NCBI GenBank assembly: GCA_964634795.1
Contig: CAZWLL010000007.1
Coordinates: 1-60,675 of the forward strand
Direction: 5' to 3'
Source of the DNA: an uncultured Ruminococcus sp.
GTDB taxonomy: Bacteria > Bacillota > Clostridia > Oscillospirales > CAG-272
Length of the DNA: 60,675 nt
The notes under the pieces are model-generated. The model saw only the letters and a list, made by a program, of their open reading frames with translations, did not search any database and was not told where the DNA came from. Shown piece by piece: positions 1 through 60,675 of this stretch (the first letter of the stretch is position 1; every line of letters starts with the position of its first letter). The position numbers and the translations under genes are program-made.

Positions 1-960
1 GTAACCGTCTTCTGTGCAGGTGGGTTCGGTTACAACGGAAGTATAGCTGTGACCTGTTGCGGGAGTGGTGTCACTTGTGTATGAGTCACCACAGTTGGAG
101 CAGGTGTAAGTTGTGTAACCGTCTTCTGTGCAGGTGGGTTCGGTTACAACGGAAGTATAGCTGTGACCTATTGCGGGAGTGGTGTCGCCTGTATAGGAGT
201 CACCGCAGACAGAGCAGGTGTAAGTTGTGTAACCGTCTTCCGTGCAGGTGGGAGCAGTTACAACGGAAGTGTAGCTGTGACCTGTTGCGGGAGTGGTGTC
301 ACTTGTATAGGAGTCACCGCAGACAGAGCAGGTGTAAGTTGTGTAACCGTCTTCTGTGCAGGTGGGAGCAGTTACAACGGAAGTGTAGCTGTGACCTGTT
401 GCGGGAGTTGTTTCGGTGTATGAATCACCGCAAACGGTACAAGTGAATGTGGTTGTTCCGTCTTCTGTGCATGTAGCGGAAGATACAGCTTTTGTGTAGC
501 TGTGGCCTGCAGCGGGAACAGTGTCGCTTACATAAGAATCACCGCAGACAGAGCAGGTGTAAGTTGTGTAACCGTCTTCGGTGCAAGTGGGAGCAGTTAC
601 AACGGAAACATAGTTATGACCTGTAGCGGAAACCGATTCGGTGTAGGAGCTGCCGCAGACAGAGCAGGTGTAAGTTGTGTAACCGTCTTCTGTGCAGGTA
701 GGTTCGGTTACGACAGAAGTGTAGTTGTGACCTGTTGCGGGAGTAGTGTCGCCTGTGTAGGAGTCACCGCAAACGGAGCAAGTATAAGTTGTGTAACCAT
801 CGCTTGTGCAAGTAGGAGCAGTTACAACGGAAGTATAGCTGTGACCTGCAGCGGGAACAGATTCGGTATAAGTGTCACCGCACTCAGAGCATGTGTAAAC
901 TATGCTTCCTTCGGCAGTGCAGGTAGGAGCGGTTTCACTTGTCTTTACATAGCTGTGAAC
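1..960 (-). repeat. Coding tandem repeat, 111-114 bp unit (37-38 aa, HSYTSVVTAPTCTEDGYTTYTCSVCGDSYTSDTTPATG), at least 9 copies
   Basis: Equivalent positions at 1, 115, 229, 343, 454, 568, 679, 793 and 904; the array continues past the window edge. Confidence 0.95.
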
Positions 961-3078
961 GTGATCCGCTTCAACCTCTATAATGTACTTCGTTCCGTCT
1001 ACTACATAAGATGTTGTTCCCGCGCCGATACCTGTGAAGGTAAGCTCGGTTGTGGTGAGAGTACCTGTTGTTACAGTACCCGATGCGGCGGCACGGGTGA
1101 ATGTGGAGCCGTCATAGCTTCCCCAAGCAATTTCGGAGAGCTGCCACCAGTAGTTTCTGGCTGTTGTGATGATTACCTGAATGTAACGGAAGCTTTCGAT
1201 TGAATCGGGAACAGAATAAGTGGATGTAACACTGCTGCTGCTCTTTCCGGTATACTGTCCGATTGTTGTCCAGTTGCTGCCGTCGGATGAAATCTGTACA
1301 TTTGCGTTTGTGCAGTAGTCGCCGTGAGCGGGAGAGGTAATCTGAATTGCATCAAAGAGAACGTCTGCACCGAGATCTACACGTGCGTACATTCCTTTTG
1401 TCTGACTGGAATCCGACCAGTAGAAGGAAGAGGTATTGCCGTCAATAAGATTCGATACATAGTAGGTGCTGTACGCAGATGCAGATGCGGATGCGGTAGC
1501 GGAGTATGAAACCTCAGCTCCCGTACCTTCCGTATATGTGATGTTGGCTTGTGCAATATTGCTGTCGCCTGCAACGGATACGCTCTTTTCGCCTTCAAGA
1601 GTATATTTTTCCGATGTTTCACCTACTTTAAGAGAGATGTTTTCTCTCGGAAGTAAGCTTGTGTAGCTGTCACCGCACTTTGTGCAGGTATAAACAGTGT
1701 CGCCGCCGTCATCTTCGGCTGTGTAATTATGTCCTTCTGCGGGAACTGTTTCTGTGTAGCTTTCGCCGCAGTCGGAACAGGTGTATGTGTTGCTTCCTTC
1801 TTCTGTGCAGGTAGGAGCAACAGAGGAGGTGAGCTGATAGTTATGAACCTTAGCGGGAGGATCTGTGTTCAGTGTACCATCGGCATTGAAACCGCCCGAT
1901 ACAACGGAAGTATCCATATCGGAGGTGTAGCTGCCGTTCATGGCAAGACCGAGAGCACGGAGAGGAAGTCTGATTTTAGACGCTTCCTGAGTTTCGGTTT
2001 CCGCACCCGGATAATCGCTCCACATACAGAACATGCCTCCGACTATCGAAGAGGAAGAGACCGTAGTACCGCAGACCTTGTAGTTGCTCCAATTCGAAGC
2101 ATATGTGTATCCCGAATCGAAGTTGTCACTCTTGCCGAGAACATAATAGAAGTCGCCGGTAGTGTTGATTAACTTAAAGCCATCGCTGACAAGGTTGGAG
2201 ACGCTTCTGGGAGAGTATCCGCTCCATCCGCTTGACCAATAGCATATTACAATGTCCTTATCGAATGTATAAGTTGTCGAACCTACAGCCGCGCTTGTTT
2301 TGTTTGCAAATTCGATACCGTCATTGAAAGCGACAGGTGTCATGCCGGCGTTTTTAATCATAGCGGCGATTTCATTGACATATTTAATGTAATATCCGTA
2401 TTTACCGCTGCTCTGAAGATTTCCAAAGCCCATTGAACCGGAAGTATAACGGTCGTTCGCGTATTCGTCAGCACCGAAATTGAAGTAGGTGCATCCTTTT
2501 TCTGCGAAGTAATCTATATATTTCTGAACAAATGCCTCTGTAAATGCTACGGCTGTGGTGTTTGTTACGTCTATTGTTCTGGATGAACTGTTGTAGCTGC
2601 AGGTTGTTCCCGTAAGAGAGTTCGCAGCACTTAAAATCGCATCCATATGTCCGGGAGTGTTGAGAAGAGGAATAATTTCAATACCTGCCGATTTAGCTGC
2701 AGATAAGATTTCATCCATTTCGCTTTCCGTCCATTCACCGGTGGAATCGGTTGTATACGCATTGTTGCCTGAGATAATCGCAGAGCTTACAGCATCGTCT
2801 GTGTAGGTGGTTGAACCTACCGTCAGCGACATATCATCAAGTATGAAACGCATACCATCGTTTCCGATTGCAAGCATAACATGAGTATAGCCGTCGGCTT
2901 TTGCTTCATAAATGAGTGATTTAACCCAGTCTACGGTAAAGTACTTTCTGCCGCAGTCCAACATTGCTATTTTCATATAGTCGGTACTGTCGGACGCGAA
3001 TACCGATGTCGGAAACAAGCAGAGAAGCATGCAGACTGTCAATAGAAGTGAAATAAGTTTGGTGCTTGGTTTTACCAT
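1..3078 (-). CDS. Secreted GH20-family beta-N-acetylhexosaminidase/lacto-N-biosidase-like protein with F5/8 type C (CBM32-like) domain and Cys/His tandem repeats; 3' end lies beyond the window
   Basis: Read by hand; absent from the ORF track because there is no stop in the window. ATG at 3078 after GGAGGA, open frame to position 1. Signal peptide MVKPSTKLISLLLTVCMLLCLFPTSVFA; GH20 motifs MLDCGRKYF, NTPGHMDAIL, FNFGADEY, GGMFCMWSD (~2980-1990); NLIDGNTSSFYWS...VDLG...YIQV...WQLSEI F5/8-like domain (~1455-1115). Confidence 0.85.
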   Translation of the reverse strand, partial: MVKPSTKLISLLLTVCMLLCLFPTSVFASDSTDYMKIAMLDCGRKYFTVDWVKSLIYEAKADGYTHVMLAIGNDGMRFILDDMSLTVGSTTYTDDAVSSAIISGNNAYTTDSTGEWTESEMDEILSAAKSAGIEIIPLLNTPGHMDAILSAANSLTGTTCSYNSSSRTIDVTNTTAVAFTEAFVQKYIDYFAEKGCTYFNFGADEYANDRYTSGSMGFGNLQSSGKYGYYIKYVNEIAAMIKNAGMTPVAFNDGIEFANKTSAAVGSTTYTFDKDIVICYWSSGWSGYSPRSVSNLVSDGFKLINTTGDFYYVLGKSDNFDSGYTYASNWSNYKVCGTTVSSSSIVGGMFCMWSDYPGAETETQEASKIRLPLRALGLAMNGSYTSDMDTSVVSGGFNADGTLNTDPPAKVHNYQLTSSVAPTCTEEGSNTYTCSDCGESYTETVPAEGHNYTAEDDGGDTVYTCTKCGDSYTSLLPRENISLKVGETSEKYTLEGEKSVSVAGDSNIAQANITYTEGTGAEVSYSATASASASAYSTYYVSNLIDGNTSSFYWSDSSQTKGMYARVDLGADVLFDAIQITSPAHGDYCTNANVQISSDGSNWTTIGQYTGKSSSSVTSTYSVPDSIESFRYIQVIITTARNYWWQLSEIAWGSYDGSTFTRAAASGTVTTGTLTTTELTFTGIGAGTTSYVVDGTKYIIEVEADHVHSYVKTSETAPTCTAEGSIVYTCSECGDTYTESVPAAGHSYTSVVTAPTCTSDGYTTYTCSVCGDSYTGDTTPATGHNYTSVVTEPTCTEDGYTTYTCSVCGSSYTESVSATGHNYVSVVTAPTCTEDGYTTYTCSVCGDSYVSDTVPAAGHSYTKAVSSATCTEDGTTTFTCTVCGDSYTETTPATGHSYTSVVTAPTCTEDGYTTYTCSVCGDSYTSDTTPATGHSYTSVVTAPTCTEDGYTTYTCSVCGDSYTGDTTPAIGHSYTSVVTEPTCTEDGYTTYTCSNCGDSYTSDTTPATGHSYTSVVTEPTCTEDGY

Positions 3079-3155: not shown

Positions 3156-3184
3156 ATAATACAACAATAGTTATTATATGTCAA
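3156..3184 (-). promoter_or_regulatory. sigmaA-type promoter for the GH20 gene
   Basis: Minus strand TTGACA (3184-3179), 17 nt, TATTAT (3161-3156); about 80 nt upstream of the ATG. Confidence 0.6.
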
Positions 3185-3701
3185 CTGTTTTTTTTAGTGA
3201 AAAAAAGATTTGTCGATTTGCACTTATTGAAATAATTTTGACACCGTCAGATAAAGTCATTATGCAAATGGTATTTAGTCTAAAATGTAAATGAATACAG
3301 CATAAGATAATATAATTTTATTAAAAAACAACATCCGATAAAGTGACGTGATAAAATTCGTGTTTTAAAAGATTCCGATTATTTGAGAATAATCGATATA
3401 ATTATACAGTCCGAGTGATAAACTATACATTATTACAGGCTATAGCTTCAAGTGATCGTGAGACTTTGATGTGCTGATACGCTAAAACGATATGTCGAGT
3501 TATATGATGACTGCAAAGTGAAAATGAGAAAAAATAATGCAGTAAATACAAAAAAAGAAAAATAACAAATAAAATAAAACGGTGCGAAATGCACAAGAAA
3601 ACAACTGAATTTTCAAACGTATATTTCCGTTTGAAAATATACGTTCCAACGGTTAATTTCTTTGCCGCTAGCCGAAAAAATCCACTACTTAAATTCAGAT
3701 A

Positions 3702-3883
3702 AACAAAAGAAGGATGCTTCACATAGTGAAGCATCCTCGAGGAGGCGGTTTATCTCTTAACTGTTAAATTAAAAGTTATCCGCCCGTAAACTGTGTGGTG
3801 AACAAAAGAAGGATGCTTCACATGGTGAAGCATCCTTGAGGAGGCGGTTTATCTCTTAACTATTAAACTGAAGATTATCCGCC
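3702..3883 (-). repeat. Tandem duplication of an 83-bp structured element (3702-3784 and 3801-3883), each ending in an intrinsic terminator-like hairpin
   Basis: 7 differences in 83 nt by manual alignment; 16-nt spacer. On minus each copy reads GGCGG...CCGCC stem, then AGGATGCTTCAC-N3-GTGAAGCATCCT followed by TCTTTTGTT. Confidence 0.9.
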
Positions 3884-46640: not shown

Positions 46641-47603
46641 TTATTTAGCTTCTTCTTCTTCCGCGGATTCGGATGAGGATGACCTGTATATTGTAATATC
46701 GGATGAATCAGTATTGATAATGATTTCACCGCGTGCCGAATCAACGTTGGTGTGAGTGTACGGACTCAATACCTCTGAGCCGTCAAGTGTTATTTTACCT
46801 GATGCGGATGTGAGATCCATATTAATTATGTCAAGCTGACTGATAGTTCCTATTGAAATCGCTCCGCTTTCGGAATTGATAGCGGCGCTTCCCGCGCAGC
46901 GGAATTTATCGGCGTTCATATTGAGTTCTTTTACGTTAATATTAATGTACTGTATTAATGCGGTTGAAAGCTCTAAATCTACCTTTTCCGCGGGAGAGTC
47001 GCTTGTGCCCGCATTGATGTTGAAGGTTGACGATGTGCGCAGCACATTACCGCCTATTACGGCGTTTTTAGTTGTAATATTGTAATCTGTTCCTGTTGTC
47101 ATGTCGGAAATATTCAAAACAAGATCGTCCGACTTTATATCGAATATTTTGATTTCCTTGTCGCTTGAAAGATATACATTTATAACCTTGTCTTTGCTTT
47201 CATCAACTGTATTGTTGAAGTTGAAAATGTACCGCATGCCCTTGAAAGAAAAACCGTTTTCCCAGAACTTGAGCATGGATTTTATATCGGGAATTTCATC
47301 AAAACTCAAAACGCGGTTGGCGTTTGAGAGGGAATAGTAGTTTTCCTTGAAGTTTACGAACTCGATATAAGATTTATCCTGACGTCCGTATATGTTTATC
47401 TGAACCTTAGACGCGATAAGCTCGATTTTCGATATTTCCGAATCGGTTAAATCGACTGTAGTGACGAGATCGGAGCCTCTGTCCTCGGAGAAAAGATATT
47501 CACCGTTTGCCTTAGCCATGTTCTGAGCAATAAAGCAGGAAACGAGTCCGACTACAATAAGGAGGACGGCTATAACGAGTGAGATTATTGATGCAGGTTT
47601 CAC
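46641..47603 (-). CDS. Membrane-anchored beta-strand repeat protein (DUF4097-like)
   Basis: N-terminal TM; C-terminal INSESGAISI, LTSASGKITL, INTDSSDITI repeats. Confidence 0.65.
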   Translation of the reverse strand: MKPASIISLVIAVLLIVVGLVSCFIAQNMAKANGEYLFSEDRGSDLVTTVDLTDSEISKIELIASKVQINIYGRQDKSYIEFVNFKENYYSLSNANRVLSFDEIPDIKSMLKFWENGFSFKGMRYIFNFNNTVDESKDKVINVYLSSDKEIKIFDIKSDDLVLNISDMTTGTDYNITTKNAVIGGNVLRTSSTFNINAGTSDSPAEKVDLELSTALIQYININVKELNMNADKFRCAGSAAINSESGAISIGTISQLDIINMDLTSASGKITLDGSEVLSPYTHTNVDSARGEIIINTDSSDITIYRSSSSESAEEEEAK

Positions 47604-48403
47604 AGCTTATAACACTCCCTTCTGACATTTAAAAACAGATCCTTGATTTTTCCGCATACAATGCCCAGCAGATTTCCGACAAGCGTGATTACCCATGGGA
47701 AAAATCTGATTGACAAATTATATATCAGGATTGATGCAAACAGAGCACATCCCGCAACCATAACACCTAAGCCTATTTCGTAGATGCCTGCTGCCGGAAA
47801 TGTAAACAGCTGTGTTATACCGAAAATAATACCTACAAGCGAAATACCCGCACCTGCGGCAACCACCGCTATGAGTATTACAACACCTGCTACTATAAGT
47901 CCTGCGAGTGCGACAAATAAAGCGGCAAACACTCCGAATATCACAGCGGCTATGGCAAGAGTAATAGGCAGGGTCAGGAAAAGTCCTACCCAGAATATGA
48001 GCATAGCCTTAACAGACGGGGAATGGTCGGGTGAATATTCAAAATAATCTTCATCCGCTGATTTAGCAGACTTTATATTGGTGCCGCGGTTTTGATTTTG
48101 TTTTACGTACGGTTTAGGTGTCACATCTCTTACCGGTGCCTTTTCCGATGGTGCGGCAACGGGAGGTATCGGCTGTACGGATGAATTTGTATTTTGAGAA
48201 TTTTTTCCCTTTGTCAGAATTACAGATATACTGTCGGCAAGCTGTTCGACTTCCTCCGAGGATTGTATTGCACTGATTTCGGATAAATCATCATTCGTGA
48301 AGGAACGGCTTAGATTGGAGACGTGTTTTGCTGCTGTTTCGTCGGGAATTCCTCTTGCTACGAGAGCTTTTTTCAGCTCACGCATGAAGATGTTTAACTC
48401 CAT
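47600..48403 (-). CDS. DUF1700/HAAS-like membrane protein
   Basis: FMRELKKAL... helical N-terminus, Pro-rich linker, long hydrophobic C-terminal half; overlaps the next gene. Confidence 0.65.
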   Translation of the reverse strand: MELNIFMRELKKALVARGIPDETAAKHVSNLSRSFTNDDLSEISAIQSSEEVEQLADSISVILTKGKNSQNTNSSVQPIPPVAAPSEKAPVRDVTPKPYVKQNQNRGTNIKSAKSADEDYFEYSPDHSPSVKAMLIFWVGLFLTLPITLAIAAVIFGVFAALFVALAGLIVAGVVILIAVVAAGAGISLVGIIFGITQLFTFPAAGIYEIGLGVMVAGCALFASILIYNLSIRFFPWVITLVGNLLGIVCGKIKDLFLNVRRECYKL

Positions 48404-50199: not shown

Positions 50200-50848
50200 T
50201 ATTACACCGTACAGCAGATTAAATTCAAACAATATCGATCACTCCGATTATATGAATACTTTGATACCCGAAGCGGTGAGAGCAGGCTTGATTAATGACA
50301 GCGATGTCGACAGAATAAGAAACGATTTAATGTCGGCACTTGCCGAGGTTATAGGCTACTATACGAAGCAGGAATCATCATCGGTGAAGGCGGATACTGC
50401 AAATGAGCTGTCTGAATCGATGATCTATAACATAGACACATATTTGCGTTCGCTCGGCGATGATAAAGCCGCACTTGAAACACTGCTTGACAGAAAAATG
50501 GATGAATTGTACGGCAAAGGATATGTTATAAATTCTAAGCATTATGAAAAAGCCAAGATTCTATACGGCAAAGCAAGATATTCGAGACTGAAAAACGGCA
50601 GTGAAGAATATAATAAAACACTTGACAAGTATTTCAGATATTATTTATCGAATTACTCACCGAAATTTTCCGCTCATAATAAAATATATCTGTCGCTTAA
50701 GGAATACGATTTGAACGGTGTATATCATATAGATGAGGCGGTTGACGTACTTAATAAGATACTCGAAATCAATCACGGACCGCAGGCGGATTATATAATC
50801 GACACGTCCGGCAATGCGAATGGTATAAAAATCGAAACTGATGAATAA
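50192..50848 (+). CDS. Hypothetical protein (DUF6179-like)
   Basis: YYTKQESSSV...ANELSESMIYNI recalled as DUF6179-like; ATG 50192 overlaps the upstream stop. Confidence 0.6.
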   Translation: MTDITPYSRLNSNNIDHSDYMNTLIPEAVRAGLINDSDVDRIRNDLMSALAEVIGYYTKQESSSVKADTANELSESMIYNIDTYLRSLGDDKAALETLLDRKMDELYGKGYVINSKHYEKAKILYGKARYSRLKNGSEEYNKTLDKYFRYYLSNYSPKFSAHNKIYLSLKEYDLNGVYHIDEAVDVLNKILEINHGPQADYIIDTSGNANGIKIETDE

Positions 50849-50958
50849 ATAAACGATTAGTGACAATTTTTTTGCTTATTTCGATTTACAACATATAGAA
50901 ATTATGTTATAATAATCCTATCACAAAAACTACGACTCATAAATAAAGAGGGCATATT

Positions 50959-51804
50959 ATGTATGAGATAACAGAAAAAAAGGTACTTAATCCCACGGTA
51001 ATAAAAATGAATATAAATGCACCGCTTGTTGCGAAAAAAGCGCAGGCGGGTCAGTTTATAATTTTACGTGTCGATAAAGACGGAGAAAGAATTCCGCTTA
51101 CCGTTGCGGATTATGACAGAGAAAAAGGAACGGTAACTATTATCTTCCAGAAGGTCGGTGCAACTACCGATAAGCTTGCCGAGCTTAACGAAGGCGACTT
51201 CATTTCCGATTTCGCAGGCCCCCTCGGAAAAGCCACATGTGTCGACGGACTCAAAAAGGTTGCCGTAATCGGAGGAGGTGTCGGATGCGCTATTGCTTAT
51301 CCGGTTGCGAAGAAGCTGCATGAAAACGGATGTGAAGTACATTCGGTAGTAGGATTCCGAAATCATGACCTCGTAATACTTGAGGATGAATTCAAGAGCG
51401 TATCCGATAAATTTGTGGTAATGACGGATGACGGCTCGTATGGTGAAAAAGGCGTTGTAACGAACGCACTTAAAGCACTCATCGATTCAGGTGAGAAATA
51501 CGATGAGGTTATCGCGATAGGACCGATTATTATGATGAAGTTTGTCGCACAGTTGACAAAGGAATACGGAATCAAAACTGTGGTAAGCATGAATCCCATA
51601 ATGATAGACGGTACCGGAATGTGCGGCGGATGCAGACTCACCGTAGGCGGCAAAACGAAATTTGCATGTGTAGACGGACCTGAATTTGACGGACACGAGG
51701 TCGATTACGATGAGGCAATGAAGAGAGGGTCAATGTACAGAGATTTCGAGAAGCATGCACGTGAACAAAACTGCAATCTTTTGAAACAGCAGACGAATAA
51801 CTGA
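50959..51804 (+). CDS. nfnA: NfnA-like FAD/[2Fe-2S] subunit (NADH-dependent reduced ferredoxin:NADP+ oxidoreductase)
   Basis: AGQFIILR...GERIPLT, GGGVG, MIDGTGMCGGCR...CVDGPEF. Confidence 0.88.
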   Translation: MYEITEKKVLNPTVIKMNINAPLVAKKAQAGQFIILRVDKDGERIPLTVADYDREKGTVTIIFQKVGATTDKLAELNEGDFISDFAGPLGKATCVDGLKKVAVIGGGVGCAIAYPVAKKLHENGCEVHSVVGFRNHDLVILEDEFKSVSDKFVVMTDDGSYGEKGVVTNALKALIDSGEKYDEVIAIGPIIMMKFVAQLTKEYGIKTVVSMNPIMIDGTGMCGGCRLTVGGKTKFACVDGPEFDGHEVDYDEAMKRGSMYRDFEKHAREQNCNLLKQQTNN

Positions 51805-51815
51805 GGAGATAACCT

Positions 51816-53207
51816 ATGCCTAATATGACACCGAAAAAAAATGAAATGCCGACTCAAGACCCTAAGGTACGCTCGACAAACTTTGACGAGGTAGCACTCG
51901 GCTACAGTGAAGAAACAGCTCTTGATGAGGCATCACGTTGTTTGAATTGTAAAAATATGCCGTGTGTTTCGGGATGTCCCGTTAACATCGAAATACCGCA
52001 TTTTATAAAAAAGATTACCGAAAAAGATTATGAAGGCGCATATAAAGTAATTTCGATATCAAGCTCACTTGCTGCGGTATGCGGTAGAGTATGTCCGCAG
52101 GAAACGCAGTGTGAGTCGAAATGTGTGAGAGGAATAAAGGGCGAATCCGTAGGAATAGGCAGACTTGAGCGTTTTGTTGCGGATTGGCACAATAAAAACT
52201 TTAACGGAAAAGCCGAACAGCCGGAGAAAAACGGACATAAGGTTGCCGTCATCGGTTCGGGTCCGTCAGGACTTACATGTGCGGGCGATCTCGCTAAAAT
52301 GGGATATGATGTAACTGTTTTCGAAGCACTTCACACGGCAGGCGGTGTTCTTGTATACGGAATACCGGAATTCAGACTTCCGAAAGCAATTGTTGAAAAG
52401 GAAATCAATAACCTTCGTGAGCTTGGCGTTAAGATTGAGACAAACGTAATTATCGGCAAAACCATTTCGGTTGACGAATTGCTTGACGACGGATTCGAAT
52501 CGGTTTATATCGGAACGGGAGCAGGCCTTCCTAACTTTATGAATATTCCCGGAGAAAACCTCTCGGGTGTTTATTCCGCGAATGAGTTCTTGACAAGAAT
52601 AAACCTTATGAAGGCTTATAAAGAAGGTTCCGACACTCCTATACTCCATGCAGAAAATGTAGCAGTAGTCGGCGGCGGTAATGTGGCTATGGATGCCGCG
52701 AGATGCGCAAAACGTCTCGGAGCGAAAAATGTGTACATAGTATATCGTCGAAGCGAAAGCGAGCTTCCGGCAAGAGCTGAGGAGGTTGAACACGCAAAGG
52801 AAGAGGGAATAGAATTCAAACTTCTTTCGAATCCGATATCTATTGAAGCTGACGAAAACGGTCACGCAGCGAAAACCGTATGCCAGCGCATGGAACTCGG
52901 CGAACCCGATGCCAGCGGAAGACGCCGTCCTGTTCCGATTGAAGGTGCAGACTTTGTGCTTGATACGGATTGCGTAATTATCGCGATAGGAACAAGTCCC
53001 AACCCGCTTATTAAATCCACAACCGATGGTCTTGAATGTTCAAAACGCGGCGGTATAGTAACCGATGATGACGGACTTACATCACGTGTCGGTGTATATG
53101 CAGGCGGAGATGCCGTGACAGGTGCCGCTACGGTTATTTTGGCAATGGGAGCCGGCAAAAAGGCTGCGGCAGCGATCGACAAATACATAAAAGAAAAGAA
53201 TAACTGA
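51816..53207 (+). CDS. nfnB: NfnB-like GltD-family flavoprotein subunit
   Basis: EASRCLNC...CVSGCP, CGRVCPQETQCE, GSGPSGL, GGGNVAMDAAR, AGGDAVTG; follows the nfnA-like gene, no GltB nearby. Confidence 0.85.
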   Translation: MPNMTPKKNEMPTQDPKVRSTNFDEVALGYSEETALDEASRCLNCKNMPCVSGCPVNIEIPHFIKKITEKDYEGAYKVISISSSLAAVCGRVCPQETQCESKCVRGIKGESVGIGRLERFVADWHNKNFNGKAEQPEKNGHKVAVIGSGPSGLTCAGDLAKMGYDVTVFEALHTAGGVLVYGIPEFRLPKAIVEKEINNLRELGVKIETNVIIGKTISVDELLDDGFESVYIGTGAGLPNFMNIPGENLSGVYSANEFLTRINLMKAYKEGSDTPILHAENVAVVGGGNVAMDAARCAKRLGAKNVYIVYRRSESELPARAEEVEHAKEEGIEFKLLSNPISIEADENGHAAKTVCQRMELGEPDASGRRRPVPIEGADFVLDTDCVIIAIGTSPNPLIKSTTDGLECSKRGGIVTDDDGLTSRVGVYAGGDAVTGAATVILAMGAGKKAAAAIDKYIKEKNN

Positions 53208-53288
53208 GTTTGCATTGCATGTATCGGCGGTGCCGAAAGCTGTTAAAACTCTCTTAACCAAGAGTTTACTCAAATTAAATTAAACACA

Positions 53289-53458
53289 CGGAACTTATTT
53301 CATACAATTATAGTCTATAGAATGATGTAGGCGGATAAGCTTAAGCTTGATAATGAGGATAACTACCGCCTCCTCGAACTTGCTCTTCTTCAAATATCAA
53401 AGATGTGAAACTCTAAAGAGTTTCGAAGATTTGCCTTTCGGCAAACGCGCAGGTTCCG
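53289..53458 (+). repeat. Multi-hairpin intergenic element related to 3702-3883 and 60623-60675 (MITE/REP-like or structured RNA)
   Basis: GGCGGATAA...GATAACTACCGCCTCCTCGA core (53330-53377); hairpins GAAACTCT/AGAGTTTC and TTTGCC/GGCAAA; short CGGAAC/GTTCCG inverted ends. Confidence 0.55.
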
Positions 53459-53485
53459 TTTTTATGGCTTAACGGTTGAGAGGTA

Positions 53486-54709
<1,224 letters not shown>

Positions 54710-54717
54710 TGAACGAA

Positions 54718-54762
54718 AAAACAGCTTATACGATTAAGATAAAAAATCGTGTAGGCTGTTTT
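54718..54762. terminator. Bidirectional terminator between the glycosidase gene and tRNA-Thr
   Basis: AAAACAGCTTATACGATT/AATCGTGTAGGCTGTTTT inverted repeat. Confidence 0.75.
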
Positions 54763-54788
54763 GTTATGTAAAAAAAGCAAAAATAAAA

Positions 54789-54860
54789 AGCTAGTGGAGG
54801 GATTCGGACCCTCGACCTGCTGATTACGAATCAGCTGCTCTACCCCTGAGCCACACTAGC
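54789..54860 (-). tRNA. tRNA-Thr(CGT)
   Basis: Minus strand GCTAGTG acceptor stem, GCTCAGGGGTAGAGC D arm, GCTGA-TTCGTAA-TCAGC anticodon arm, GAGGG-TCCGAAT-CCCTC T arm; CCA not encoded. Confidence 0.93.
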
Positions 54861-54885
54861 ATTTTATAATTTTGTCAGCTTTGTA

Positions 54886-54914
54886 ATTATACTATATTAT
54901 TCTTTTTTTGTCAA
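54886..54914 (-). promoter_or_regulatory. Consensus sigmaA promoter of tRNA-Thr
   Basis: Minus strand TTGACA, 17 nt, TATAAT. Confidence 0.85.
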
Positions 54915-55009
54915 GCGATTATATGAAAATAATATCCGATTGTTGATAACGCGTGAGTAAGTGAGATAAGCATACTTACAAAACGAACGTAAAATTTCGA
55001 GACAAAATA

Positions 55010-55037
55010 AAAAGCCGCGGAACATTCCGCAGCTTTT
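55010..55037 (-). terminator. Terminator hairpin for the zinc-ribbon gene
   Basis: AAAGC-C-GCGGAA/TTCCGC-A-GCTTT; T-tract on the minus strand. Confidence 0.6.
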
Positions 55038-55067
55038 CGGGAAGAATTATTCTTAATCAATGTTCGA

Positions 55068-55619
55068 TTATTCGTTTGAACCGTTGTCGGAAGATTCATC
55101 AGCAGGCTGTTCGCATGCGGATTCATCATTGCTTTCGGTTTCTGTTGATGAGCAGCATCCGCAGTCACAGGATTCGGTATTTTCTTCGGATTCGGTTTCG
55201 CCGCAGCAGCAAGAACATTCGCAGCTCTCTTCTTCACATTCGCAAGTTTCGGGTTCGGGTTTTTCAACCTTTGCACCGCAGTATGAGCAGAAAGCAGCTT
55301 CTTCGGAAATTTCGTTTCCGCAATTCTGGCAAATCACAACCTTCTTGAGCTTAGCGATTTCCTTCTTGGTGTTTTCGATATCGGTTTTGATTTTGTCAGC
55401 CTTCATGATGAGGGAAGCGATGTCGGATGTATGATCATCACCTGTGCACTGAGCTTCATAGAACATATAACCGATTTCTTCGAATACGCTTGAGAGCTTT
55501 GCTTCGTTTGATTTTACATTTATGCCAAGCTTAGCGATTGTTGTAAGTTCACCTGTTTTTTTAACAGCCTTGTTTGCAACGTCAGATGCGCTGCGCTTAA
55601 ATTCTTCAAAAAATGACAT
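55068..55619 (-). CDS. Coiled-coil plus zinc-ribbon protein with Cys/Glu-rich tail
   Basis: CQNCG...FCSYCG zinc ribbon; RBS AAGGA; tail ETCECEEESCECSCCCG...SCDCGCC. Confidence 0.8.
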   Translation of the reverse strand: MSFFEEFKRSASDVANKAVKKTGELTTIAKLGINVKSNEAKLSSVFEEIGYMFYEAQCTGDDHTSDIASLIMKADKIKTDIENTKKEIAKLKKVVICQNCGNEISEEAAFCSYCGAKVEKPEPETCECEEESCECSCCCGETESEENTESCDCGCCSSTETESNDESACEQPADESSDNGSNE

Positions 55620-55668
55620 GACAATATCCTTTCAAATATATATATAAATTAACTTGCTTTCATGGCTT

Positions 55669-55697
55669 ATTATACTCCGAACATGTAGTAAAGTCAA
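55669..55697 (-). promoter_or_regulatory. sigmaA promoter of the zinc-ribbon gene
   Basis: Minus strand TTGACT, 17 nt, TATAAT. Confidence 0.7.
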
Positions 55698-55876
55698 TTA
55701 AGAAAAGGTAAATTTACGAACATTATTATTAGATAATACTATTTTTTATTTAGTATATTTTAATCAAAAGAGGCATAACTCTAATAAAATCAGCATTGCA
55801 CTGTAACAGCAGTATAATTTTGATTTGCCGCATAGTCGTGCTTATAAGTCGGAAAATTGTCTTGCATAACATCTTT

Positions 55877-56515
55877 TTATTCGAAAGACGGTGTGTATTC
55901 CATCGTGTTCGGATGGCTTGTAATTTGACGAATTCTGAAATTACGTACCTGAATCCAGCTTGCATATGTGCCGAGTCCGACTTTTCCGTATGCCGTAATA
56001 GGATCGGGATCGAACATTTCGATAACCAGCTTTCCGTCAACGAATATAAAACAATGTCCGTCAATATCTCCGGCTTGAATAAAATACAATTTTCCGGCTT
56101 CAAGCGGTATGAGTGATGTGACTGAGCGGCAGCGGCATTCGGGATAATGCTCGATTCCCGTTTTGTTCTCCCACCATCCTCCGAGGCCGGCTATGTAGCT
56201 GATGCCTGCGTCATCGTGTTCATTGTCCCATCCCTCGGCACGCCAGGTGAAGTTCAAATCATTATCGCACGGAGGAACGGTTCTTCCCTCAAATTCCAAA
56301 AGAACATTTCCCGGAAAATGCTTTTTCGAGTAGAGTATACCGCCTGAGTTGCCCGTATGTTTTCCGTCAATCCAGCCGTTTTCAACCTTCCATACACCGT
56401 TCTTATATTCCCAATCGCGATTAAGCTCTTCAGTTGTACGCGGACCTTCAGCTAAAATCGGACTTTGATCTAAGTCGATAATCTGCTCCATAATATGCAG
56501 TTTACTGTTTTCCAT
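55877..56515 (-). CDS. Hypothetical protein, ConA-like beta-sandwich (DUF1080/3-keto-glycoside hydrolase-like fold suspected)
   Basis: GGAGG RBS before ATG 56515; GVWKVENGWIDG, VLLEFEG, FVDGKLV, GKVGLG, IQVRNFRIR pattern. Confidence 0.55.
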   Translation of the reverse strand: MENSKLHIMEQIIDLDQSPILAEGPRTTEELNRDWEYKNGVWKVENGWIDGKHTGNSGGILYSKKHFPGNVLLEFEGRTVPPCDNDLNFTWRAEGWDNEHDDAGISYIAGLGGWWENKTGIEHYPECRCRSVTSLIPLEAGKLYFIQAGDIDGHCFIFVDGKLVIEMFDPDPITAYGKVGLGTYASWIQVRNFRIRQITSHPNTMEYTPSFE

Positions 56516-56601
56516 AAAATAACACCTCCGTAAAAAATTCATATGAATCGAATTCGGCAAAACAGCAGCTCTATACGAATAGCTGTTTCGACGAGATATT
56601 T

Positions 56602-56621
56602 AATATTTAAATTTAAATATT
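56602..56621. promoter_or_regulatory. 20-bp perfect palindrome between divergent genes (candidate operator)
   Basis: AATATTTAAATTTAAATATT equals its reverse complement. Confidence 0.5.
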
Positions 56622-56710
56622 TAAATTCAGACTATAATATGATATAATCAGACAGTTAGAATGTCAATAGGCAAATTGCCGCTCTTGAAAAAATAATGGA
56701 GGTCTTATAT

Positions 56711-58609
56711 ATGAAACTTCGCGCACCCGCAGTACCGCTTATTACCGTCGATCCGTATTTCAGTGTCTGGTCGGTGAAAGATCATCTTAACGATTCCGCT
56801 CCGTGTCACTGGACCGGACATACAAACACCATTAACGGTTTTCTGACTATAGACGGAGAGTTCTACCGTTTTATGGGAGGTGAGGAGGCCGGCGGTATTC
56901 CGATGAAACAAATTTCACTTGATATTACCGCAATGACAAGTGTTTACACTTTCGAAGCATCGGGTATTCGCCTGACAGCTCGCTTCTTCACACCTCTTTT
57001 TGCGGATGATTTAATGTTAATCAGCAGACCGGTGTCATACCTTGAGCTTTCTTATGAAATTACAGACGGAAAGAGTCATGTGCTTGAGGCGGAAATTCGT
57101 GCTTCGGAAGAGCTCTGTCTTGACGCGGCACGAGAGGAGCCTGTTGCCCTTTATGTTGAATCACTTGACGGAGGCATTAGTGCCGCACGCATCGGCAATG
57201 CCGTACAATCGGGGCTCGGCTGGGCAGGAGATGACACTCGTATACATTGGGGATATTTTTACCTGTGTGTTCGTGACGGTTTGACGGACTATAAAAAGGT
57301 GCGCGGCGAAACCTTCGTAACCGCAAAAATCGTTTTAAAGGAAAACACGCCGTCACTGTTTGCTTTTGCTTATGATGATATAGAAAGCATAGAGTATTTT
57401 AATAAAATTTTAAAAGCGTATTGGAAAAAGGACGGAATGACAATTGAGCAGGCAATTTGTGACGCTTTTAATGAGTATGACACTCTTCTTGCACGTGAAA
57501 AAGTCTTTTCCGCAGATTTAAAAGAAAAGTCAACAGCAGCAGGCGGAGAAAAGTATGCGGAAATGCTTTTGCTGGCTTACAGACAGGTTTTAGCAGCTCA
57601 CAAGCTTGTTGAGGACGATGAGGACGGATTACTGTATATATCAAAGGAATGCTTCTCTAACGGATGCGCCGCTACCGTGGATGTAAGCTATCCGTCTATG
57701 CCGATGTTCCTTTACTATAATCCCGAGCTTGTGAACGCTATGATGCGCCCCGTTTTCCATTATGCGAACAGTGATGTATGGCCGTTCAATTTCGCACCGC
57801 ATGATGTCGGATGCTATCCGAGAGTCAACGGACAGGTGTATTCCAACGGTACGGATCCCGAGCATCAAATGCCTATTGAAGAATGCGGAAACATGCTTGT
57901 AATGACGGCTGCTGCTGCTCTGGCGAAAAAGGACGTATCATTCTTTGTCGAAAATGAAAATACCTTCGTAAAATGGGCGGACTACCTCGTTGCTCATGGT
58001 GCGGATCCCGAAAATCAAATCTGTACGGACGACTTTTTCAAGCATCTTCCGCATAACTGCAATCTTTCCGTTAAGGCGATTATGGGTATCGCTTCTATGG
58101 CAATTATGCTTGAAATGAACGGAGAAATCGATGGAGCACAGTACTACAGAAAAACCGCACAGGATATGGCAAACAGCTGGATTGAGAGAGCCGACAACGG
58201 TGACGGAAGCTTCCGTTTGGCATTTGATTTACCCGACAGCTACAGCCAAAAATACAATATGGTATGGGATAAGATTTTCGGAACAAATCTGTTCCCTAAA
58301 GATAAGATAGAAAGTGAATTTGCTTCATACAAACAGTATGCCAATGCATACGGCAATCCGCTTGACTGCCGCGGCTCTACCTCAAAAACCGACTGGCTTA
58401 CGTGGACGGCAACATTAGCCGAAAGCAGGGAAGACTTCGAAGAATTTATGGCTCCCGTTTGGCGTTTCTTCAATGAAACCGAAAATCGTGTACCTATGGC
58501 GGATTGGTACAGTACAAAAACTGCGGCACGCTTTTATCAGCAGAACCGTACTGTTCAAGGCGGAATGTTTATCAAGCTTCTGGAACAGTCGGGCAAGTGC
58601 CGTGTTTAA
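56711..58609 (+). CDS. DUF5127/DUF4965 'glutaminase A'-like protein, probable six-hairpin glycosidase fold
   Basis: LRAPAVPLITVDPYFSVWS, YRQVLAAHKL, KECFSNGCAATVDV, FAPHDVGCYP, MPIEECGNM, NQICTDDF, KTDWLTW. Confidence 0.85.
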   Translation: MKLRAPAVPLITVDPYFSVWSVKDHLNDSAPCHWTGHTNTINGFLTIDGEFYRFMGGEEAGGIPMKQISLDITAMTSVYTFEASGIRLTARFFTPLFADDLMLISRPVSYLELSYEITDGKSHVLEAEIRASEELCLDAAREEPVALYVESLDGGISAARIGNAVQSGLGWAGDDTRIHWGYFYLCVRDGLTDYKKVRGETFVTAKIVLKENTPSLFAFAYDDIESIEYFNKILKAYWKKDGMTIEQAICDAFNEYDTLLAREKVFSADLKEKSTAAGGEKYAEMLLLAYRQVLAAHKLVEDDEDGLLYISKECFSNGCAATVDVSYPSMPMFLYYNPELVNAMMRPVFHYANSDVWPFNFAPHDVGCYPRVNGQVYSNGTDPEHQMPIEECGNMLVMTAAAALAKKDVSFFVENENTFVKWADYLVAHGADPENQICTDDFFKHLPHNCNLSVKAIMGIASMAIMLEMNGEIDGAQYYRKTAQDMANSWIERADNGDGSFRLAFDLPDSYSQKYNMVWDKIFGTNLFPKDKIESEFASYKQYANAYGNPLDCRGSTSKTDWLTWTATLAESREDFEEFMAPVWRFFNETENRVPMADWYSTKTAARFYQQNRTVQGGMFIKLLEQSGKCRV

Positions 58610-58615
58610 GGTGTC

Positions 58616-60613
58616 ATGGAAAAGGAGAATTTCATCATGCATTTGATGACTGAGTTGAATCGCTTTCAGTTGACTGAAGGCAAAAAGCGTGTGTCTGAGA
58701 CGGCGGTTTCGCAAATGACGAACAATATATATAAAGAAGTGCTTTGTCAGATTCCCGAATATGCCGACGCAAACGAGGACGCGTGGACTCGTATTTCGAT
58801 AATAAGAAACTTTACCGCTGAGATTACAGAGCGTTTAATAGCTTTAGGCGTTTCGCAGAATGAGCTGCAAACAGAAGACGCTTTCGCCGTATGCACGAGA
58901 CAGAATGAGATTTGTGTCTATTCCGAGAGTGAGTGCGGCTTGATTTACGGTGTGTATGAAGTGCTTCAGCAGGCACAAGCCGACAACGGATATGTACAGG
59001 ATGGGATAAGCTTTTCCGCGCCTCAGTGCCCGCTGCGTGCATTGAAGGTATACCTGCCCGGCGAGAAACAGCTGAATCAATTTTATAAGATTGTGGATAT
59101 GCTGCTTTATTACCGCTACAACACGATTATTATCGAGGTCGGAGGTGCTATGGAATATAAGCGCCATCCCGAAATCAACGAAAGCTGGATTGAATATTGT
59201 AACGAAATGCGCCGATATCCCGAACGTGCGGACGAGGTTCAGAATATGTTCGGATGGGTGAAGAATTCCATCCATTTTGAAAACGGTGACGGCGGATTTT
59301 TATCGCAGGATACCGTTCGTGAGCTGGTAAAATACTGTCGTGACCGCGGTATGAATGTGATTCCCGAGGTACCGTGCCTGAGTCATTCCGATTATTTGCT
59401 TAACGCTCATCCCGAGCTTTCGGAACGTCCGTACGATCCGTTTCCCGATACATATTGCCCATCCAATCCCGATTCGTACAAGCTGCTGTTCGAGGTTATG
59501 GACGAGGTAATCGATGTGTTCCGTCCGAATATTATGCAGATAGGTCATGATGAGTTTTATACGTACGGCTTGTGTGAACGCTGCAGACAGCGCTCAGCCG
59601 CAGATATACTTGCGGGAGATATCACACGCATACACGATTATCTTGCGGAGCACGGCATTCGTCTCATGTATTGGTCCGAAAAAATGCTTAATCATATCAC
59701 CAGCTGGGGAGAAGGTTGGGGCGGTGCCGAGCGACATTGCAAATGCTCGAGAAAAACAGTTCACGATATGCCGGCTACTTATACGGCAATCGACAAGATT
59801 CCGAAGGATTGCATTTCTCACAACTGGTATTGGGGCATGCGAGAAAGCCACGATGATGAATTCCTTTCAAGAGGAATGGATATGACATACGGAAACTGGG
59901 ACCCGCGCGGCTTCGTAAATTGGCAGAAACGAGTTGAAGCAGGCGCAATGGGTGCGGCGCCTTCGCATTGGACAACACTTGAAGAGGTTACAATGCAGCG
60001 CAACAGCGTGCTTATAGATATAGTATTCGGCGCATATCTCTTCTGGAAGACTGATTATACAGATGATCGCTACGAGGAGCTGTTTAAAGCAAGCATAGAA
60101 GAGCTTTATCTGTACCACAACCGTAAAATTATGGACGGACCGCATTTCGAGTTTAAGCATATGACTACCATTTGGCGTAAACATATCTACATTACAAGCG
60201 CACCGATGCTGCTTGATCGTGATACGGTAGGTAAATATATTATATCCTACAGAAGCGGACGTACACTGGAGATTCCCATAATATACGGTGTCAATATCAT
60301 GAACCTGAACAGAAATTGGACACGCGAACATGATACGGAACTCGATTGCTATGATGTGGATCAGTCACTCGCGGAGGTTACCGCCACGACCTTGCCGGAA
60401 CTGCAGCCTGACGGATTGACGCAATTCCGTTTTGTCGCTGCAAATCCTTATCCCGATGATCAGGTAACGGGTGTTCAGGTTGTGAAGACGGTTGAGGACA
60501 ACGGTGATATTTTCCTGACCGAGTTTAATGTTTGCGGGTCTTACGGTGCCAGCGAAAAGATTCGTGAATGCTGTGATGCGGAAAGCAGCCGCCTGATTTC
60601 TCCGGTTATTTAA
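58616..60613 (+). CDS. GH20-like beta-N-acetylhexosaminidase (no obvious signal peptide)
   Basis: FSAPQCPLRALK, RYNTIIIE, VIPEVPCLSH, MQIGHDE catalytic DE pair; C-terminal beta domain. Confidence 0.8.
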   Translation: MEKENFIMHLMTELNRFQLTEGKKRVSETAVSQMTNNIYKEVLCQIPEYADANEDAWTRISIIRNFTAEITERLIALGVSQNELQTEDAFAVCTRQNEICVYSESECGLIYGVYEVLQQAQADNGYVQDGISFSAPQCPLRALKVYLPGEKQLNQFYKIVDMLLYYRYNTIIIEVGGAMEYKRHPEINESWIEYCNEMRRYPERADEVQNMFGWVKNSIHFENGDGGFLSQDTVRELVKYCRDRGMNVIPEVPCLSHSDYLLNAHPELSERPYDPFPDTYCPSNPDSYKLLFEVMDEVIDVFRPNIMQIGHDEFYTYGLCERCRQRSAADILAGDITRIHDYLAEHGIRLMYWSEKMLNHITSWGEGWGGAERHCKCSRKTVHDMPATYTAIDKIPKDCISHNWYWGMRESHDDEFLSRGMDMTYGNWDPRGFVNWQKRVEAGAMGAAPSHWTTLEEVTMQRNSVLIDIVFGAYLFWKTDYTDDRYEELFKASIEELYLYHNRKIMDGPHFEFKHMTTIWRKHIYITSAPMLLDRDTVGKYIISYRSGRTLEIPIIYGVNIMNLNRNWTREHDTELDCYDVDQSLAEVTATTLPELQPDGLTQFRFVAANPYPDDQVTGVQVVKTVEDNGDIFLTEFNVCGSYGASEKIRECCDAESSRLISPVI

Positions 60614-60622
60614 TCGCACAGT

Positions 60623-60675
60623 GAGTGGGAATAATCTTCAGTCGAGTAGGCGAGATAACCATCCCACTCTCGAGA
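60623..60675 (+). repeat. Structured element related to 3702-3883 and 53330-53377, possibly cut by the window end
   Basis: GAGTGGGA-ATAATCTTCAG-N10-GAGATAA-CCA-TCCCACTC-TCGAGA. Confidence 0.6.

Follow-up and report, generated by a model that had tools for sequence, protein, structure and literature searches.

Directly behind yajC in an uncultured Ruminococcus sp., two copies of an 83-nt unit that resembles a structured RNA followed by a terminator stand head to tail, and the question they raise is whether they form a regulatory RNA particular to yajC or have some other origin. We analysed the entire 60,675-nt stretch of DNA in which they lie (the window; features are listed in Table 1). The observation of a tandem pair after yajC, made in the original prediction, is confirmed: the direct repeats at 3702-3784 and 3801-3883 are 92% identical with 7 differences over 83 nt and are spaced 99 nt from start to start (TRF gives a period of 99, 1.8 copies and 91% matches), and the first GGCGG begins at 3883, 4 nt past the yajC stop codon as had been stated. 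The interpretation that was placed on the units is partly supported.

Read on the yajC strand, each unit has the order GGCGG-N31-CCGCC, UCCUC, hairpin, CUUUUGUU, and both the folds and the terminator scan agree with the description of the units as hairpin-plus-terminator cassettes. The module pattern has no matches in 100 shuffled windows, and its occurrence is therefore not due to chance. The unit 1 linker together with the 3' arm of the clamp (the GGCGG/CCGCC hairpin) reads CCGCCUCCUC, and the unit 1 terminator has an energy of about -19 kcal/mol (energy and pair table). Both window units passed the terminator scan, with stems of 13 pairs, 6 of them G-C, and CTTTTGTT tails; the second hairpin is a perfect 13 bp in unit 1 and 12 bp plus one G-U in unit 2, and with GGCGG and CCGCC present in both units the two stems are intact, as predicted. 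The seven differences had been described as concentrated in loops, and this needs correction: five are in the 31-nt interior, one is in the terminator loop, and one is at the base of the terminator stem (A-U versus G-U). Of the five interior differences, four are confined to one side, the 5' arm, of the inner stem that folding gives for unit 2; they are uncompensated, two of them producing C-A mismatches. Overall, the array after yajC has the layout of n copies plus one partial copy, and the terminal partial unit is clearest in strain L003 (AGTTTAAGGGGCGG, versus AGTTTACGGGCGG at the internal junction).

Table 1. Positions of the yajC array, of elements upstream of the GH20 gene and of further repeat copies, in window coordinates.
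Feature	Position	Strand	Evidence or remark
yajC CDS, 110 aa	3888..4220	-	Pfam PF02699 YajC, E=2.2e-28
Unit 1 clamp hairpin: GGCGG, 31-nt AU-rich interior, CCGCC	3843..3883	-	covariance-model score 74.9 bits
Unit 1 pyrimidine linker UCCUC, predicted unpaired	3838..3842	-	folds and pattern matches
Unit 1 intrinsic terminator (predicted): 13-bp stem 3809-3837, CAU loop, CUUUUGUU 3801-3808	3801..3837	-	terminator scan
Inter-unit spacer, 16 nt, CACCACACAGUUUACG	3785..3800	-	period 99 versus unit length 83
Unit 2 clamp hairpin: GGCGG, 31-nt interior, CCGCC	3744..3784	-	covariance-model score 68.2 bits
Unit 2 linker UCCUC	3739..3743	-	folds and pattern matches
Unit 2 intrinsic terminator (predicted): 13 pairs including one G-U, UAU loop, 3710-3738, CUUUUGUU 3702-3709	3702..3738	-	
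Degenerate partial copy: spacer end and 5' clamp arm, AAUUUAAGUAGUGGAU	3680..3694	-	closes the yajC array
Third terminator-like hairpin, unrelated, downstream of the array	3609..3638	-	terminator scan; inverted repeats I6, I7
GH20 sigma-70-type promoter-like site, TTGACA-17-TATTAT	3156..3184	-	11/12
Third copy, module and linker: GGCGG, 31-nt interior, CCGCC, UCCUC	53330..53375	+	covariance-model score 60.4 bits
Insertion of ~139 nt in the 5' leader of the NAGPA-type glycosidase gene	53330..53468	+	empty site in L149-L153
Fourth copy, ended by the window edge: GUGGGA, 31-nt interior, UCCCAC, UCUC, GAGA	60625..60675	+	

The clamp helix is well preserved among the copies: 91.7% of cells are paired and three of its six pairs are changed on both sides, a result reached by at most 3 of 500 shuffles and with slid registers performing far worse, all three double changes deriving from one sequence (the 60-kb copy, see below). 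We take the clamp to be real, since three of its pairs have both partners substituted and the enclosed stretch remains 31 nt. The second hairpin was compared in seven variants, in which no pair is lost and 7 of 11 positions are variable, with change on both sides at six, and its two G-U intermediates are valid on the yajC (transcribed) strand alone. Judged from this pattern of substitution, the second hairpin is a real RNA helix, and both helices are kept by compensatory change, the second one on the transcribed strand. The 31-nt interiors are no more stable than shuffled sequence (z = 0.09, -1.66, 0.12, -0.93 and 0.22 for five interiors), and the inner stem, originally drawn with GAGA and AUAA elements, is accordingly rejected; identity between the interiors of different copies is about 55-60%. 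Hairpin A and the form found in the sister species have energies of approximately -19 to -20 kcal/mol with a U-tract and are predicted to be good terminators, and hairpin B, which is present in some strains (about -10 kcal/mol, with a poor U-tract), is probably a non-terminator. In one strain lineage (L003 / L005, 3338-3482), unit 1 has GGCAG (A-C against its own CCGCC) and unit 2 has CUGCC (G-U against its own GGCGG); a helix joining the 5' arm of unit 1 to the 3' arm of unit 2 would make these two changes perfectly complementary, in what is an isolated example.

Nor is the module a 3'-UTR feature specific to yajC: it is dispersed, and two more copies are located at unrelated loci within 60 kb. 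A pattern requiring GAGATAAACCGCC missed the 53-kb and 60-kb copies, which were exposed by a 13-nt BLAST match, a relaxed pattern and a covariance model consisting of the module plus linker and run with filters off. The rebuilt model (R2), used for the final window scan, recovers the four copies alone across the window at 59-75 bits, with the next best match at 13 bits; four copies at three loci in 60 kb compare with no pattern matches in shuffled sequence. All four are co-oriented with transcription of their flanking genes. Three of the roughly one dozen sizeable intergenic regions in the window are occupied by the repeat, which suggests, by extrapolation from 60 kb, that it is common genome-wide.

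The 53-kb copy is flanked on one side by a gltD-like oxidoreductase gene and on the other by a NAGPA-type phosphodiester glycosidase gene, and matches the yajC units in its 41-nt length, its clamp, a GGATAA start and the UCCUC linker, with a different interior. It is the first part of an insertion that begins exactly on the first clamp base and contains the module, the linker and, by folding, a three-way structure closed by GAACUUGC/GCAGGUUC (an 8-bp stem), followed by CGUUUUUAU. In L149-L153, which do not have the insertion, a conserved promoter-like AGTCTATAGAAT is positioned about 20 nt before the ribosome-binding site. One relative with the empty site has a gltD-like gene of 84% nucleotide identity, near the 86% of the sister species at yajC, and the site is empty in more distant relatives also; all sampled strains carry the 139-nt insertion (L154-L156). 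From these comparisons the 53-kb copy is clearly an insertion relative to close relatives. Past the linker, its similarity to the yajC units is not significant, its score being equalled by 29 of 500 shuffles and by 20 of 500 random window segments, and the copy has no canonical terminator hairpin and is in a 5' leader rather than after a stop codon. A conserved CACGGAACTT-N16-17-GTCTATAGAAT element precedes the NAGPA gene in all relatives (window 53288-53323, + strand; L149-L153), with a GGAAC...GTC spacing that we take to resemble an ECF-sigma-type promoter, and the repeat is inserted a few nucleotides downstream of it. About 40 extra nt after the gltD-like gene (53240-53270, + strand) are absent from L149 and contain a hairpin, AAACTCTCTTAACCAAGAGTTT, similar in sequence to another, GAAACTCTAAAGAGTTTC, that lies 150 nt further downstream within the 139-nt insertion.

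The 60-kb copy begins 11 nt past the stop codon of a second GH20-family gene (58616-60613). It scores 25.6 bits with the first covariance model (R1) and 58.7 bits with R2, and its interior is clearly homologous to that of unit 1, with 12 consecutive identical bases. Its clamp is GUGGGA/UCCCAC in place of GGCGG/CCGCC, such that three pairs are changed on both sides and 31 nt are still enclosed. The region from 50200 to 60675 is a glycan-degradation neighbourhood, encoding the NAGPA-type phosphodiester glycosidase, a 3-keto-disaccharide hydrolase-like protein, a GtaA six-hairpin/DUF4964/DUF5127 protein and the second GH20-family protein. All three repeat loci adjoin hexosamine-related glycosidase genes, an adjacency that may come merely from larger intergenic regions around accessory genes. 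Elsewhere in the window, two adjacent ORFs of 320 and 267 aa without Pfam matches (46641-48403, - strand) are located amid + strand operons.

At yajC itself the comparative set consists of two species, the window species and its sister species. Contigs encoding an identical YajC have two or three units after yajC; in some strains there are three near-identical units, and in others the middle unit has a different second hairpin (hairpin B) and the third has a diverged interior. Two assemblies of the sister species (YajC 94% identical) contain two and four identical 96-nt units, followed by a truncated GGCGGATG that ends the array. The clamp helix and the second hairpin are both kept in the sister species, the only homologous species with units, so the structural conservation that had been proposed as a check is present there. 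In seven relatives with 75-83% YajC identity there is no module, and a plain terminator is found about 100-160 nt before a DUF3792 gene, followed in some of them by HHH, SASP and GH20 genes. The yajC array is thus lineage-restricted and polymorphic in copy number.

Units are 92-100% identical within a species and 75% identical across the two species, compared with background identities of ~63% for the third codon positions of yajC and 71.5% for the intergenic DNA downstream. The identity is unevenly distributed: GGCGGATA is identical at 8/8 positions, ACCGCCTCCTC at 11/11, and GGATGCTTC and GAAGCATCC at 9/9 each, the interior is about 60% identical between window and sister species, and the base of the terminator stem has changed from AA..UU in the window species to GG..CC in the sister species. 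Three window copies and the sister species share the clamp and the block ACCGCCUCCUC without a single difference. This strict conservation is not explained by plain termination and something constrains these parts, perhaps a role of the RNA in the host, such as protecting the 3' end, pairing with SD sequences or binding a protein, or else a need of the element's own propagation. ORFs have been called on the strand opposite yajC over the sister arrays (92 aa, L129 2775-3053, - strand; 179 aa, L130 311-850, - strand), and these are almost certainly artefacts, the 96-nt unit giving 32 stop-free codons in that frame; the 99-nt units of the window contain stop codons on the strand opposite yajC. 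Nor does an opposite-strand reading of the repeat hold, as in no copy does a usable start codon follow its GAGGAGG.

Next on the yajC strand is the gene for a large GH20 hexosaminidase, which begins at 3078 and extends past the start of the window (1-3078, - strand). Its promoter-like site has been conserved by the sister species and also by more distant relatives, and with a site of its own the GH20 gene need not depend on read-through from the yajC array. The hexosaminidase has a long run of Cys-rich repeats of ~33 aa (...TCTEDGYTTYTCSVCGDSYT...), and its homologues in relatives are 1,300-1,500 aa long with F5/8 type C domains. Compared with species of ~77% YajC identity (L131-L140), genes for DUF3792, an HHH-motif protein and a small acid-soluble spore protein have been lost between yajC and GH20; no remnants of these three genes are detectable in the window, and about 500 nt of AT-rich non-coding DNA separates the array from the GH20 promoter.

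Searches for a known family were negative, as the original prediction would have it. Against Rfam the whole window gives a tRNA alone at the gathering threshold, and in permissive scans of the three loci the best match has E=0.38 with scores far under threshold. Nothing similar to the units was found in annotated plasmid and phage collections, so the search gives no indication of an insertion-sequence end. A pattern search of a genome collection with GGCGGATAN{24,32}CCGCCTCCTC gave more than 118 chance matches in GC-rich coding DNA and none that is real among the matches listed; a tighter pattern gave two chance matches in a metagenome scan, and two scans of viral contigs gave none and three chance matches, respectively. 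CRISPR, type III toxin-antitoxin repeats, integron attC sites, K-turns, ZTP-like motifs and RAT/ANTAR-type sites were rejected from the anatomy.

By description, the closest parallels are with the SPRITE and BOX elements (PMC3049150), which are interspersed intergenic repeats of less than 200 bp confined to one species and its closest relative, have a terminator-like stem and a U-rich tract, are enriched near gene 3' ends and were possibly co-opted as terminators. Here too there are dispersed intergenic copies shorter than 200 bp with empty sites in relatives (the NAGPA leader and the yajC locus), and a terminator-like stem with a U-tract near 3' ends, the 53-kb copy excepted. SPRITE has no obvious target-site duplication, and in BOX the internal boxB module is repeated in tandem a variable number of times, although at yajC it is the whole unit that is tandemly repeated rather than an internal module. 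SPRITE is described as one 18-bp duplex that has a long U tract and ends in AAAA/TTTT (PMC3049150), unlike the two hairpins seen here, with a 5-6 bp clamp round 31 nt, a terminator of 11-13 bp and a pyrimidine linker between them. The host here is an uncultured Clostridia lineage. No sequence similarity to either is claimed, and the resemblance to SPRITE, compared by description, would be functional and organisational only.

REP and BIME elements (PMC3733652, PMC2817692) are also short intergenic hairpin repeats, often right after stop codons and clustered in arrays, for which roles in termination and mRNA 3'-end stabilisation have been proposed, and the 53-kb copy begins with GTAGGCGGATAAG, recalling GTAG-tagged REPs. 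However, REPs are near-complete palindromes of 20-40 bp with a GTAG or CGTC tag (PMC3733652), whereas here a 5-6 bp stem encloses 31 nt that fold like shuffles, and the bases before the clamps are GTC, ACG, GTA and GTGA, with GTAG at one of the four copies (53327-53330). BIME arrays alternate in orientation, in contrast to the head-to-tail yajC array. REPs are mobilised by RAYT transposases and exceed 100 copies per genome; the 60 kb analysed here contain four copies of the module, no RAYT was found in the window, and a survey of GTAG repeats reported none in Firmicutes (PMC3733652, PMC2817692).

The explanation we favour, and hold to be somewhat likelier true than false, is that the units are a lineage-restricted, SPRITE-like interspersed repeat that supplies intrinsic terminators and has been amplified at yajC by unequal recombination. 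A member of the repeat would consist of a 5-6 bp G+C clamp round a 31-nt AU-rich stretch, a pyrimidine linker of 4-5 nt and a second hairpin, which in most copies would be a competent intrinsic terminator. Copies would reside in intergenic DNA, along the direction of transcription and typically right after a stop codon, and one such cassette would serve as the yajC terminator region. Unequal recombination or slippage between units could then generate a head-to-tail array of two to four copies with a partial last unit, a step to which the terminal partial unit and the identical units of the sister species point. Transcription of yajC would stop at the first terminator, leaving two hairpins at the 3' end of the message, and the units behind it would be back-up terminators insulating an independently promoted GH20 gene. 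That the repeat family exists and is dispersed, that one copy is an insertion and that copy number is polymorphic are direct observations; a function in termination and 3'-end protection is suggested by the predicted structures, array growth was probably by unequal recombination, and the copies presumably spread by some duplicative or insertional process.

Liang, Rudd and Deutscher (2015) reportedly observed in E. coli that a gene is translated less when a REP hairpin follows within about 15 nt of its stop codon. Two of the present copies begin 4 and 11 nt past stop codons, but a clamp of 5-6 bp is a weak obstacle.

A selfish or neutral DNA repeat without any role at the RNA level, with the yajC array a neutral minisatellite, is an unlikely account but one with several observations behind it. 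The clamp and adjacent block would then be kept as DNA recognised by a mobilising enzyme or in recombination, for example as an ssDNA hairpin; presence and absence do differ between close relatives, copy number varies with units homogenised within species, conserved end-proximal blocks with a variable interior are typical of non-autonomous elements, and the 53330 insertion has its exact boundary at the clamp. A role in DNA alone does not fit with a second hairpin that covaries and tolerates G-U on the transcribed strand, or with four of four copies being co-oriented with transcription. The marks of mobilisation are also missing, there being no TIR beyond the 5-6 bp clamp, no clear target-site duplication at the one comparable insertion (53 kb), no transposase domain among the 10 candidate ORFs scanned in the window, and no resemblance to the mobile DNA of plasmids or phages. 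Tandem riboswitch-like or protein-dependent attenuators gating read-through into the GH20 and NAGPA genes are a very improbable reading, although tandem hairpin-plus-terminator units do look like tandem attenuators, two of the loci precede genes for GlcNAc-related glycosidases and the third comes after a gene of the GH20 family. The interiors are too variable and unstructured to offer a conserved part like a ligand pocket, no competing or mutually exclusive antiterminator pairing is present in MFE or centroid folds, unit 1 abuts the yajC stop codon, there is no Rfam match, and the conserved promoter-like site of GH20 is some 520 nt downstream of the array with a terminator-like hairpin between them.

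The candidate to which the original prediction gave most detail is an anti-SD regulatory RNA, in which the unit, with CCUCCUC as its exposed seed, would act as a csRNA- or LhrC-like sRNA processed from the yajC 3' UTR or transcribed at the NAGPA leader and pair with ribosome-binding sites in trans, or in cis like the icaR 3' UTR. The architecture is in keeping with csRNAs, which have two stem-loops with an unpaired anti-SD between them (PMC3091779), and with LhrC, likewise multicopy with a CU-rich single-stranded stretch between its hairpin A and terminator (PMC4132741); both are ~80-110 nt long, with a 5' stem-loop, an unpaired C/U-rich stretch complementary to the SD, a terminator and sibling copies. 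The linker here is predicted to be unpaired, CCGCCUCCUC is identical in three window copies and the sister species against ~63% identity at yajC third codon positions, and the 53-kb copy is a few nt past a conserved promoter-like element, so that an RNA made there would start with the clamp hairpin. The anti-SD CCUCCU of the original prediction is present in most copies, but the 60-kb copy has UCUC as its linker and the third unit of L001, L002 and L010 has UUCUC, variants that show CCUCC not to be family-defining.

Several further points count against such an RNA. csRNAs and LhrC each have a regulated promoter of their own (the CiaR box TTTAAG-N5-TTTAAG, or LisR-dependent), whereas the promoter scan finds nothing promoter-like before the internal unit 2, and only the 53-kb copy follows a promoter-like element, which in relatives is the NAGPA gene's own. 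There is no anti-start CAU 5' of the anti-SD, unlike in most csRNAs, and one copy is inserted in a 5' leader. The start regions of yajC, GH20 and NAGPA pair by a generic 5-6 bp SD core, at -7.5 to -10.5 kcal/mol, and the best partners of ACCGCCUCCUC in the window, besides trivial antisense self-matches, are inside genes and not at start sites, so that the target check suggested for the linker identifies no specific target. The icaR 3' UTR has a comparable C/U-rich anti-SD motif, UCCCC, in a Gram-positive mRNA (PMC3868564), but here the yajC start region AAGGGAGAAAAAUAAUG pairs with the linker block by about 5 bp (-7.5 kcal/mol) and the motif comes with a dispersed repeat instead of belonging to the 3' UTR of one particular gene. 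Restriction to two species and recent insertion would also be unusual for a conserved regulator. The sRNA or anti-SD idea is thus possible but weakened, and we rate it as improbable, a shade below the neutral-repeat account. A more speculative variant, which we regard as a long shot, is that the cassette is a self-propagating plug-in RNA module that brings a clamp hairpin, an exposed anti-SD stretch and a terminator wherever it lands. If so, its spread would rewire neighbouring genes, for example by attenuating the NAGPA leader and insulating GH20, and the transcribed copies may jointly constitute an SD-binding sponge or a family of sibling sRNAs.

Returning to the terminator-supplying repeat, the tandem pair is most likely a local amplification of a repeat found at three or more places and not a special regulatory RNA of yajC. 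Conservation of the clamp and ACCGCCUCCUC is the one feature that could hide a real function at the RNA or DNA level. The array of 96-99 nt units is a strain-variable marker that is liable to collapse in assembly, and it calls for caution in annotation, as a frame-preserving array is not a gene and an opposite-strand ORF has been called in both sister assemblies. Good descriptions of small interspersed repeats exist for proteobacteria and streptococci, but hardly any for uncultured gut Clostridia. UTR differences between close species often come from repeat insertions (PMC7049690), and the present family fits with this, altering 3' UTRs and one 5' leader between otherwise syntenic species, and illustrating how a ready-made terminator cassette would spread and amplify within one lineage.
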